NCBI RefSeq assembly: GCF_045037415.1
Contig: NZ_CP173438.1
Length of the DNA: 64,000 nucleotides
Direction: 5' to 3' (one strand)
Origin: Escherichia coli
Lineage (GTDB): Bacteria; Pseudomonadota; Gammaproteobacteria; Enterobacterales; Enterobacteriaceae
Shown here: positions 24,101-27,100 of the stretch, piece after piece
Position numbering within the stretch: position 1 is the stretch's first letter
Layout of the letters: each line of letters opens with the position of its first letter
Made by a program: the position numbers

Positions 24101-27100
24101 ACGTCAAGAAACCGCTGCATTTCCCTGAACAGCCGCCCGTCTGTTAACCCCCGCTTCCCTGCAAAGGGTCTGGTGATTTCAACCGGGAACTGGCGGCGGT
24201 AATGCCCTTTCTGCAACACCTGAGCTATTAACCAGTCTAAGCGGTCTTCTTCAATTCCTTCAGTCAGCCATTCATGCAAAGGCCAGCGCTGCTGATAAGT
24301 CTGAATAAGCCAGTTCATTAACGGGCGTCGTTTCACCCTGCCGTCATACAGCCAGCTCAGCATGTTAACCACGCAATAAGCACCGCAAAGACAGTCCAGT
24401 TCGCCCTGTTGAGACGCACGTATCCCTCTGTCAGTCGTCACAGATAATTCCCCATAAATTAGTGATGGTTAGTACAGGGGGATTAGCTTTCCCAGAGAAC
24501 GGTAATGGTGTAGATGTTCATGCCGTGATACTGAATAAAGTTGGATTGCCAGAGTTCAAACAGCTCCCTTCCGGCGTTAACAGGCAGGTCACCAACATAA
24601 GCAAGAAAGACATATTGCTGACTCCAGCTGATATCAATTTCCTTTTCAAGTTCGGGGTATACCGTCCCCATATAACTGAAGTCGGTAATGTAATCAAAAT
24701 ACCATTCATCATTGCGTGAAATAATCCGTATTTCGACAGGATGGTAACCACCCTTTTCAGCGCTGTAACTCAGGTCTTTAAATAACAGACTGACGGCTGT
24801 AATTTTGGCTTTATGCGGCGGTGGATTTCCCGCTTCATTTAATATGATATTTATTAATTCCTGATCGACGGGCATAGCTAGCCCTTCCTGATGGACAATA
24901 TTCATCAGTGATTTTCCTGTTCAATATATTCTGATAAGACGTTATGTCTGCACCAGCACAGGTGGGGTTTAATCACCTAATAAATGGTAAGTGCATGACA
25001 ACGTACTGACTGGGTAAAATATAGTTCACCAGCAATATTATTATATCAAAAATATACTTTTTATGCAAATAGTAACAAAGAGAAACTAATATGTGGTTCA
25101 GCAATGAAATAACTGGCAATAGGTTTTTATTCATTATTAAGTGATGGCATACTTTCCATTCTGCCATGTCAGACAGGTCAGGATTCCGGGGTGGTTCCTT
25201 CTGTCTGGCATGGCGGAAAACTGACGCTATCACACCTTCCCGTTCAGCTTTTCAAAGAGGCGCTTACGCTCATCTTCGGGCAGCTTCATGATTTGTACCG
25301 CCAGTTCAGAAACATTGGGCACCTGAGACATCAGATCGTCCTTTACCAGCCTGAGGGCCTGCTCCATCAGTTGCGCCCGCGAAGCTGGCGACATATTGCG
25401 ATACAGCTGCACCCAGAGGCTTAGCTGGCGATCACTGTCGTTGAGAGTAAACGCTTCGCCCTTAGCCCTGTTTCTCTCATCATCAAGCGACATTGTGGCT
25501 GCGCTAATATGGTAAACCACACCTTTCCCGGCAGTCCTTTTACGACGTATTTCCGGGTGCAGGGATGCCAGCTTTTCCAAGCGCATCCTGGCGCCACGCG
25601 CAGTGCCCGGCATCCCCTCAATATGAGTGAATTCCTCTGCTGTCAGCCAGTCTTTAGCCTCTTCAACAGAAGCTTCAGGATGAGTAGGTATAGCCGAAAC
25701 TGTTCTCTTACTGCTCATATAAATTTCACCAGATATCAATGCGTTAATATGAAAACCAATAAATAGATACCAAAAGAACTTGAAAGGTATCTTTTATTCG
25801 CATTTAATATCCATGTACTGATTCCATGGAGTTAATACTGTGCGTAACTCAACAGCATCGCAGAAAAAGCAAATCAAAGGAAGTTCAGGGAACTGGCATC
25901 GTGCCGATATTGTGGCAGCACTTCACAAGCGAGGGTTAACGCTGGCGTTACTGTCACGCAGTCACGGCCTTGCGCCACGGACATTAAATAACGCCTTAGA
26001 GCGTCATTATCCCAGAGCTGAGCGCATTATTGCCGGGGCTCTGGATACGACACCGGAAACATTATGGCCGGAAAGGTATGCCCTTAAAAATGGACCTAAT
26101 AGCAGGTAAAGGATGCAACCATGGCAACCACCATCACTGAAATAACGGAATGCTTTGAGTATTTTTTCAGTTCTCTTTATCGCAGGGAGTTCGTCAAAAC
26201 CCTGCGTCTGAACGAATGTAGCGAGCGGGAATTACTGCCTCTGGTACGTTGCTATTTGCTGGGTTGGTTTGCAGATAACGTCTCACCGGAAGTAAAAAGC
26301 AAACTGCCAGGAACTGTATCCGGGCACGGTTACATTGATTTTGTCATTGACGATGTGGCCGTTGAGTTTGCAGTACGTAAACCAACTGCGGCACGTTCCA
26401 ATGTCTCTGCGACCGTCAACAGTACAGAAGTAAAGAAATTGATGAAACATGACGGCAAAGCCTTGCTTGTGCTGTTTGATTTCTCTGACACACCCTATTC
26501 AGAAGAACAGATTGAATCCTTCCGCAACTGGCCCTCTCTTGGTCGAGGGAATCATCGCAAGTCTGCATTCAACGTCGTTTATTTCTTTGTGGAAAAACGC
26601 AGACCGCTGGCACTGGGGAAAATCACCAAAAACATCCGTATCACTTAACAGGGAATTAATTAATGAACAGAAAACTGTTGGCCTTATTCATGGCAGCCAT
26701 AACGCTACCAGTCGCAGCAGCGCAGTACGTAAAACCCGGAGCGGTTCTAACCCTGCATCCGGGACAGAATAACGCTGAATTCAACATTAATGCCTCAACG
26801 GGGGATGGTTCGGGCGTATGCAATATGGAGGGGACAGCACAGCAAATAGCTGCCGGAGAAAGTCAGAAGCGTCGCTGGGTCTGGAATGACAATGCCAGCG
26901 AGTGTGTTGCAGTAATTAGTGAACTGACAAACGGTAAGGCCAGCATTATGACACGTGGTTGCGAGGGATACTGCGGGGCTTCTGCGGCAGGCGCAATGGA
27001 TGGTCTATTTAATAAGAAATAAAAGTATCATTAATTTACGAAGGAACTACAGATGAAAAGAGCAATACTTCTGGTATTAATTGCTGCTGGTTTGCTGGCT

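Follow-up and report, generated by a model that had tools for sequence, protein, structure and literature searches.

What is a divergent pair of regulators resembling the c-ner switch of phage Mu doing in an Escherichia coli genomic island in which no Mu transposition genes are found? The question is raised by a stretch of 64,000 nucleotides from contig NZ_CP173438.1 (NCBI RefSeq assembly GCF_045037415.1), here called the window, in which a Ner-family gene at 25840-26109 on the plus strand is transcribed away from a Mu-type repressor-like gene ('c-like') at 25230-25718 on the minus strand. A first-pass annotation, made from the sequence alone, had suggested that a borrowed phage switch may control the cargo of the island. 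The available data favor a modified version of this idea, to which we assign a probability of roughly 60%: the pair is a Mu-type c/Ner module that has its ancestry in common with the transposable-phage switch, is detached from transposition genes, and serves as the regulatory core of integrase-borne Enterobacterales islands with defense cargo, where it would act as a two-state toggle. Judged by sequence comparison, the two proteins are homologues of the Mu-type repressor and of Ner, and we infer that they repress each other.

The analysis compared 24 related loci (L003-L011, L012-L023 and L024-L026), together with a plasmid-borne copy (L029). These loci come from at least 12 genera and comprise E. 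coli and Enterobacter islands beside mutS as well as loci from Cronobacter, Mangrovibacter, Citrobacter, Cedecea, Pectobacterium, Buttiauxella, Sodalis, Hafnia, Klebsiella, Lelliottia and others.

The Ner-family protein is a counterpart of EnrR

The rightward gene encodes 89 amino acids and was identified by its open reading frame (ORF), by Pfam and by structure-database matches. The Pfam family HTH_35 (PF13693) covers residues 18-85 with 92.6 bits against a cutoff of 25 (E = 1.5e-26), and the protein is 62% identical to Mu Ner over 63 amino acids (PDB 1NEQ, E = 1.9e-23), in agreement with the initial assessment that it is close to Mu Ner. It is nearer still, however, to a different protein: the best match among solved structures is the 'EnrR repressor' (PDB 7F9H, E = 3e-37), with Mu Ner only second, and 73% of 84 aligned residues are identical to EnrR. 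All published DNA-contact residues of EnrR are kept (R21, H29, R40, A45, R47, T48, N51, R55, Y57, R59 and R62), as is its N-terminal basic extension SQKKQIKGS, whereas the Ner proteins of three phages (Mu, L030 and L027) carry neither the extension nor Arg47. An identity as SfsB/Nlp, the chromosomal Ner-like protein of E. coli, was rejected, as the NCBIfam model NF007670 reaches 69.8 bits against a cutoff of 150. The ratio of nonsynonymous to synonymous substitution rates (dN/dS) of the enrR-like gene is 0.05-0.16. On these sequence grounds, the virulence regulator EnrR, known from the literature, has its E. coli counterpart in the gene at 25840-26109.

EnrR (ETAE_0051) of Edwardsiella piscicida was described by Ma et al. 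(Nucleic Acids Research 2022; PMC9023278) together with its structures (PDB 7F9H/7F9I). It is encoded in genomic island GI2 beside transposase, integrase and 'DNA repair' genes, the last of which is equated here with RadC. EnrR is required for virulence, its knockout having a phenotype; it binds AT-rich DNA genome-wide, specifically AT-rich palindromes built of TATCT/TAGATA-type half-sites, contacts the minor groove through its N-terminal extension, opposes H-NS genome-wide as well as at esrB and regulates about 363 genes (PMC9023278). In vivo, its top chromatin immunoprecipitation (ChIP) peak lies upstream of its own gene; it is active in ordinary wild-type Edwardsiella cultures, and its over-production in E. 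coli results in lysis and release of a Mu/D108-like phage (PMC9023278). DNA binding, competition with H-NS and autoregulation are established for the Edwardsiella protein only and would apply to the E. coli counterpart by analogy.

These properties permit an explanation centered on EnrR itself, in which the protein is a genome-wide, nucleoid-associated anti-H-NS regulator, while the Mu-type partner either keeps EnrR below toxic levels as a local brake or antagonist or acts as an independent regulator, with neither reciprocal repression nor a bistable switch. The regulon of about 363 genes, the genome-wide AT-rich binding, the toxic and lytic effect of over-production in E. coli and the activity of EnrR in wild-type Edwardsiella all speak for it (PMC9023278), as does the retention here of every contact residue and of the extension missing from phage Ners. 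The strict co-conservation of the pair, of its spacing and of the Mu-like promoter/IHF layout described below, on the other hand, exceeds what a simple brake would need, and the top EnrR ChIP peak falls on the very spacer that the two genes share (PMC9023278). As such, we consider this explanation possible if on balance unlikely, and it overlaps with the toggle model rather than excluding it.

A Mu-type repressor-like partner

The leftward gene has two candidate start codons, an ATG at 25718 that yields 162 amino acids and a TTG at 25739 that yields 169. The ATG is more likely, because RefSeq uses it, homologues start there and a conserved GGTGA precedes it; the spacer between the two genes is therefore 121 bp long (25719-25839).

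The first-pass annotation had noted in the 169-residue form a GMPG-containing N-terminus reminiscent of Mu-type repressor DNA-binding domains, and several comparisons bear this out. Specifically, residues 27-98 match both the N-terminal domain of Mu-type transposases (PHROG 310, E = 1e-7) and Mu-type repressors (PHROG 7148, E = 1e-5). In BLASTP, residues 31-78 align with residues 16-62 of Mu c (E = 1e-4), and the two sequences have in common W-x-[ST], GMPG and a GK-x-x-x-Y wing. Comparison by hhalign of a 20-member family profile with a small Mu-type set, consisting of Mu c, the MuA N-terminus, the N-terminus of a Klebsiella Mu-like transposase and an E. coli YfeC-like protein, gives a probability of 96.3% (E = 1.9e-9). 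Several UniRef relatives are labelled 'HTH Mu-type domain-containing', tblastn searches of phages and plasmids retrieve mostly the N-termini of Mu-like transposase A genes, and the predicted structural model has the winged-helix fold of such a DNA-binding domain. Neither NCBIfam nor PADLOC gives a match for the protein.

A link to a genuine transposable phage is provided by L030, a Mu-like prophage on the Enterobacter plasmid NZ_CP058197. Its 163-residue repressor is 31% identical to the island protein over 127 amino acids (BLASTP E = 2e-14) and matches the family profile in hhalign with 98.3% probability over 99 columns, including a conserved C-terminal helix. Since the alignment extends into this helix, the partner qualifies as a near full-length homologue of a genuine transposable-phage repressor. 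The alignment with Mu c itself ends after the DNA-binding domain; a C-terminal likeness to Mu c (LPEDERKRLFEK versus LPEEKRKEILSK) was dropped because 217 of 3000 shuffles reached the same level, which is not significant. The dN/dS of the repressor-like gene is 0.11-0.19, with 0.30 in one nearly identical pair, and both regulator genes are under purifying selection.

Two observations on further proteins belong here. An E. coli chromosomal protein of 124 residues, encoded beside a major facilitator superfamily transporter (L028:102-476), is 30% identical to residues 21-117 of the repressor-like protein and scores below threshold on the Pfam model PF02316 (E = 0.18), and Mu c itself scores on the Pfam YfeC-like family (E = 1e-4). 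Together, they suggest a wider family of small Mu-type regulators.

MuA binds the enhancer through a domain that it has in common with the Mu repressor. Since the same domain can thus be employed for enhancer binding instead of repression, the partner might be an architectural or directionality factor for the XerC/D-like recombinase of the island, akin to winged-helix excisionases, and not a transcriptional repressor; its position upstream of a string of genes that ends in this tyrosine recombinase in nearly all loci would fit such a role. The protein is twice the size of a typical excisionase, however, and its conserved helical C-terminal half is homologous to that of the L030 phage repressor. 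Moreover, the island already has an AlpA-type excisionase-like gene, and a gap of 158-579 bp separates the partner from the next gene. A role in recombination is accordingly very improbable, and a function as repressor remains the preferred interpretation of this protein.

A conserved control region with a Mu-like layout

The 121-bp divergent control region (25719-25839) is the part of the locus in which the likeness to Mu is positional. Among long-form loci, it is 84-98% identical, whereas as many as 67% of synonymous sites differ in the genes on either side; between the window and L009, for instance, the spacer is 86% identical and 67% of synonymous sites in enrR differ. The spacer changes several-fold more slowly than synonymous sites, and an alignment of 15 loci reveals several invariant blocks.

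The first of these elements is an exact match to the consensus of integration host factor (IHF), TATCAATGCGTTA (WATCAANNNNTTR), at 25734-25746 on the plus strand. Of 15 loci, 14 retain it, and Mu carries TATCAACGCGTTA at the equivalent place. With five matches to the consensus across the whole window, only about 0.009 would be expected per 121 bp. It is followed by a candidate rightward promoter for enrR at 25780-25808 on the plus strand, with the -35 hexamer TTGAAA at 25780-25785, the -10 hexamer TTTAAT at 25803-25808 and a predicted start near 25815; both hexamers and their 17-nt spacing recur in every locus examined. A candidate leftward promoter for the repressor gene, TTAACT-18-GATATT on the minus strand, can be read from the sequence, and its -10 element overlaps the rightward one.

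A search for operator repeats, as initially proposed for this region, found two candidates. The central one is an imperfect inverted repeat, AATAAATAGATACC-N14-GGTATCTTTTATT, at 25758-25798, which brackets the -35 hexamer and has exact arms AGATACC/GGTATCT and AATAAA/TTTATT. Inside it lie AAAAG at 25772-25776 and CTTTT at 25791-25795, and it holds the EnrR-type half-sites AATAAAT, TAGATA and TATCT, of which TAGATA and TATCT are half-sites of the EnrR crystallization DNA and AATAAAT is half of the EnrR ChIP motif. The outer arms of the repeat differ between loci with long-form (161-169 residues) and short-form (126-134 residues) repressors, and AAAAGR...YCTTT is common to both groups. The second repeat is an imperfect palindrome, GTACTGATTCCA/TGGAGTTAATAC, at 25815-25838, which covers the enrR ribosome-binding site and has a GTACT.A core conserved in all loci; its place corresponds to that of the Ner sites in Mu, immediately behind the early promoter. 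An RNA hairpin that would hide the enrR Shine-Dalgarno sequence was also considered and is not claimed, because the folding z-scores are weak and inconsistent (+0.5 to -2.8, with two competing structures) and the left arm lies upstream of the predicted start.

The same elements recur in Mu at closely similar distances. From the repressor start codon to the IHF site there are 17 nt in Mu and 15 nt in the island, and from the IHF site to the -35 hexamer 33 nt in both (31-33 nt in other loci). The -35 and -10 hexamers are 17 nt apart in both; relative to the first base of the -35 hexamer, AAAAG lies at -9 in Mu and -8 in the island, and CTTTT at +11 in either. The leader before the ner gene is 71 nt in Mu and about 25 nt in the island. 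Applied to Mu, this layout predicts a transcription start at 1028, which matches the promoter annotated in the GenBank entry for Mu. In the Mu operator region, CTTTTYAGTAAK has CTTTT as its repeated core, and we take this pentamer to be the Mu repressor consensus.

Conservation of the pair across related islands

The arrangement is a stable one. In 24 of 24 loci, a partner gene (46-98% identical) diverges from an EnrR-like gene across a gap of about 120 bp. By tblastn census, 20 of 21 loci have a homologue of p175, the protein encoded next to EnrR, directly after the enrR-like gene, and L024-L026 are without p175. On the other side, the partner gene is followed by DUF2787, p179, RadC and the XerC/D-like recombinase, with AlpA and further conserved proteins of no known family beyond. 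The related loci sit at different chromosomal sites, and the genes that flank this backbone vary, with Lamassu and an Ec67-type retron here and SIR2/UvrD, McrBC or type I restriction-modification (RM) elsewhere. Since the variable genes lie outside the backbone, the pair is conserved island core and not cargo.

The absence of a transposase beside the pair, as the first-pass annotation had noted, holds throughout: tblastn with Mu A and Mu B as queries gave no match in the window or the related loci, and MuA or MuB is adjacent to the pair in none of the 24, so that intact Mu A/B homologues adjoining the pair, which would mark a simple prophage remnant, are not seen in these loci. No member of the family was found in 2.9 million viral contigs.

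These observations bear directly on the simplest alternative, that the pair is what remains, without function, of a decayed Mu-like prophage and lies in an island by chance. The nearest phage relatives of both genes do occur in Mu-like phages, and in one related island a Mu-like prophage lies near the pair. This prophage (L008:11351-16381, CP056676), located just after CbtA, has genes for Gp27, Mor, GemA, DUF3164, a B-like AAA ATPase and an rve transposase. It is a secondary insertion, however, because it is oriented away from the pair, about 3 kb off, and missing from five otherwise identical sister loci; its presence may be a coincidence or a hint of interplay between Mu and the island. Selection likewise speaks against a relic, with dN/dS of 0.05-0.19 for both genes (0.30 for one nearly identical pair) and a spacer more conserved than silent sites. 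The same non-Mu neighbors recur in the 24 loci at differing chromosomal sites, MuA, MuB and other Mu genes are not adjacent, and the Edwardsiella orthologue has a knockout phenotype (PMC9023278). The idea of an inert leftover is already contradicted by these data and hardly credible.

In the short-form islands (L003-L007:10175-11267, and L029), a CbeA/CbtA toxin-antitoxin pair and DUF905 lie between DUF2787 and the recombinase. Through these genes, the backbone is connected with the gene set found in the CP4-type cryptic prophages of E. coli K-12.

A proposed two-state switch

The preferred reading includes the following proposed mechanism. The repressor-like protein would bind the inverted AAAAG...CTTTT motifs around the -35 hexamer and thereby shut off the operon of enrR, p175 and the exported-protein genes. 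EnrR, in turn, would autoregulate the rightward promoter and repress the overlapping leftward promoter of the repressor gene. IHF would bend the DNA about 75 bp upstream and favor the rightward promoter, as it favors the early promoter Pe of Mu (PMC3820752). Acting together, the three proteins would make up a toggle with two states; it would determine how much EnrR is present and, by way of EnrR, how strongly AT-rich genes of the island and the host are expressed.

Several observations weigh against this model. Profile searches identified HTH_35 and PHROG 310/7148, whereas the Pfam model of the Mu DNA-binding domain, PF02316, has no match to the repressor-like protein at E <= 0.1, and its L024 homologue stays below threshold (E = 0.16, 12.7 bits, cutoff 23.3). 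When the repressor-like protein was compared with the PDB by sequence and by profile, the Mu repressor domain was not recovered and no relevant match appeared. A strict promoter and terminator scan makes no call in the spacer; it misses the candidate enrR promoter because TTTAAT does not have the A that is usual at its second position. Nowhere in the spacer is there a match, within three mismatches, to the complete EnrR ChIP consensus AATAAATNATTTATT. The overall DNA likeness of the spacer to the Mu operator region is marginal, being reached by 9 of 2000 shuffles and 3 of 60 AT-rich controls, and for this reason the argument relies on positional layout instead. The operator assignments, including which protein would bind which element, follow from position and motif. 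Finally, the activity of EnrR in ordinary Edwardsiella cultures implies that the partner, if it is a Mu-c-like repressor of enrR, leaves enrR at least partly expressed, in contrast to Mu c in a lysogen. The resting state is therefore not a tight 'Ner-off' state as in a Mu lysogen; repression may be incomplete, or the switch may rest on the side of EnrR.

The model retains one half of the original proposal of a borrowed switch in control of island cargo. The homology to a phage switch holds; control of cargo is not borne out by the gene order, as the pair and the genes that it heads are backbone, and Lamassu, retron, McrBC, SIR2 and type I RM genes lie outside.

A more far-reaching scenario would make the island a Mu-responsive satellite or defense platform. 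EnrR would act on the Ner/repressor operators of Mu-like phages, forcing induction or blocking lysogeny, or a phage c or Ner protein would flip the island switch, so that backbone and Lamassu/retron cargo are deployed upon Mu-type infection. We regard this scenario as improbable. Cross-talk between such islands and Mu-like phages is nevertheless raised as a possibility, because over-production of EnrR is reported to release a Mu/D108-like phage, which is a hint in this direction.

Genes headed by the pair

To the right, enrR is followed, as first described, by a 175-residue protein and three small exported proteins. The conserved protein p175 (26121-26648, plus strand) begins 11 bp after enrR. 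It has no family in Pfam, PHROG, PADLOC or NCBIfam, and its predicted model (mean predicted local distance difference test score, pLDDT, 61) has no fold match; D73, D78, E82, R86, K105 and D120 are invariant. The three small exported or membrane proteins (26663-27700, plus strand), recognized from their ORFs and N-terminal sequences, are p119 (119 residues) with a signal peptide, p111 (111 residues) with the lipobox LAGC and p81 (81 residues) with a hydrophobic N-terminus; p119 and p111 are conserved across long-form loci. Gaps of 11, 14 and 30 bp separate enrR, p175, p119 and p111, and p81 comes after a further 66 bp. The result is a tight, Ner-first operon as in Mu, with p175 in the place of A.

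To the left, the claim that the repressor-like gene leads a string of genes is doubtful, because the gene is followed by a non-coding gap of 324 bp (24906-25229; 158-579 bp in other loci) with a strong sigma-70-like promoter of its own. This promoter, TTTGCA-18 nt-TG-TATAAT at 25040-25069 on the minus strand, was found by promoter scan with 10 of 12 matches and faces DUF2787. No terminator was detected in the gap, and an 86-residue ORF within it is probably spurious. Like Mu c, the repressor gene may in effect be monocistronic, although read-through could occur.

Beyond the gap lies the conserved leftward backbone (22472-24905, minus strand), defined by Pfam, NCBIfam and synteny across loci. 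It comprises the genes for DUF2787 (24483-24905), p179 (23902-24441), RadC (23448-23918) and the XerC/D-like tyrosine recombinase (22472-23416), all on the minus strand. The pair thus heads backbone genes rather than variable cargo. Farther left, a conserved block at 18066-21648 on the minus strand encodes AlpA and proteins of 171, 284 and 465 residues, the latter three without family matches, and beside it a divergent 208-residue protein, also without family match, is encoded at 21859-22485 on the plus strand. The ORFs of AlpA and the 171-residue protein overlap by 47 nt. Block and divergent gene are possibly an excision and replication module of the island.

The island and its setting

In strain SA186, which is an ST131 isolate, the island is about 28 kb long and bounded by ychF and dhaR. 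It starts with a P4/SXT-type integrase at 6574-7749 and also contains insertion sequence debris; a comparison of its two ends revealed no att-type direct repeat of more than 12 nt. Its annotated genes are non-phage: a DDE transposase A, a B ATPase and phage morphogenesis genes were not recognized, and the island does not classify as a transposable prophage. The stretch 25100-26700 is present in 593 of 5426 complete E. coli genomes (about 11%), in all of them on the chromosome, and most of these copies are nearly identical to one another.

Rfam gave no match in 21000-28500, and PADLOC assigned the pair and its immediate neighbors to no defense system. The cargo to the right includes a Lamassu-type three-gene defense system at 28268-31807 on the minus strand (PADLOC LmuB E = 2.8e-176, LmuC E = 4.3e-57, LmuA E = 1.4e-105), the genes of which RefSeq names 'ABC-three component system'. 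Adjoining it, a 590-residue ORF at 32042-33814 on the minus strand bears the RefSeq name of a retron Ec67-family reverse transcriptase/endonuclease; Rfam finds no msr/msd RNA family beside it at the gathering threshold. Near the integrase end, a group II intron with an ltrA reverse transcriptase (about 9200-10815, plus strand; Rfam RF00029 at 10729-10815, 64.9 bits) sits in a copy of the ISEc24 transposase. The small RNA C0299 at 63149-63227 on the minus strand (Rfam RF00119, 111.9 bits) belongs to the core chromosome, distant from the island.

Implications

The Ner half of the pair is already published as EnrR, and Ner-like autorepressors of non-Mu elements are also known. In the searchable literature, we found no description of the Mu-type repressor partner, of the conserved Mu-like IHF and promoter architecture of the island family, or of a c/ner module as the invariant core of integrase-borne islands without transposition genes. 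EnrR has been published as a 'xenogeneic' virulence regulator that stands alone; the findings indicate that it forms half of a conserved switch of the Mu type. As such, the Mu-type partner offers a testable answer to the question of how EnrR levels are controlled, both in Edwardsiella and in the roughly 11% of complete E. coli genomes that carry the pair. More broadly, the islands show that the regulatory module of transposable phages can persist for a long time in the absence of transposition genes, serving as the control core of defense-carrying integrase islands.

Comparison with known systems

In its overall composition, the island resembles the core of enterobacterial pipolins, which combine an outer SXT/P4-type integrase with an inner tyrosine recombinase, an excisionase-like gene, DUF2787 and exchangeable defense cargo (PMC11551731). 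It differs from them in that the general Pfam and NCBIfam scans, which include no dedicated piPolB profile, place no backbone ORF in a piPolB or other polymerase family, and the pipolin study does not mention Ner or Mu-type regulators (PMC11551731). A precedent for a Ner-like autorepressor outside Mu is Acr1 of IncA/C conjugative plasmids, an autoregulated repressor that heads an operon of a non-Mu mobile element and is likened to the island protein here by its description (PMC4207636). Acr1, however, has no Mu-type repressor partner; it is paired with an H-NS-like protein and controls conjugation activators (PMC4207636).

With EnrR of E. piscicida, the island protein has the N-terminal basic extension and the DNA-contact residues in common, and both genes reside in a genomic island near integrase, transposase and 'DNA repair' (RadC) genes (PMC9023278). 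The nearest available EnrR relative, at L024, is 89% identical to EnrR and is accompanied by a divergent Mu-type partner, DUF2787, a recombinase and AlpA. In contrast, the EnrR study treats the protein as a stand-alone nucleoid-associated regulator and mentions neither a divergent partner nor a Mu-type switch (PMC9023278), and the E. coli island spacer does not contain the full EnrR ChIP consensus.

The phage Mu switch, with its promoters Pe and PcM, operators O1-O3 and IHF site, differs from the island in several respects. The island is without the A/B transposition genes, Mu ends and phage genes; its spacer measures 121 bp against 169 bp in Mu, and its leader about 25 nt against 71 nt; the C-terminal half of its repressor is not demonstrably related to that of Mu c; the operator sequences differ; and its Ner protein has the additional N-terminal extension and Arg47. 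The L030 prophage differs likewise, as the genes for transposase A, B ATPase, Gam and GemA come after its pair, and its spacer, 231 bp long, has different repeats (AATTCGATTT). What the island has in common with these phages is the arrangement of the pair. In L030, repressor and Ner genes are arranged divergently in the same way, and its Ner is 51% identical to the protein in the window. In Mu as in the island, a divergent repressor and a Ner gene, homologous between the two in the Mu-type HTH domain and the Ner fold, flank an IHF site that is 15-17 nt away from the start of the repressor gene and 33 nt away from the -35 hexamer, with a 17-nt promoter spacer and AAAAG/CTTTT around the -35 hexamer, and ner comes first in a tight rightward operon.

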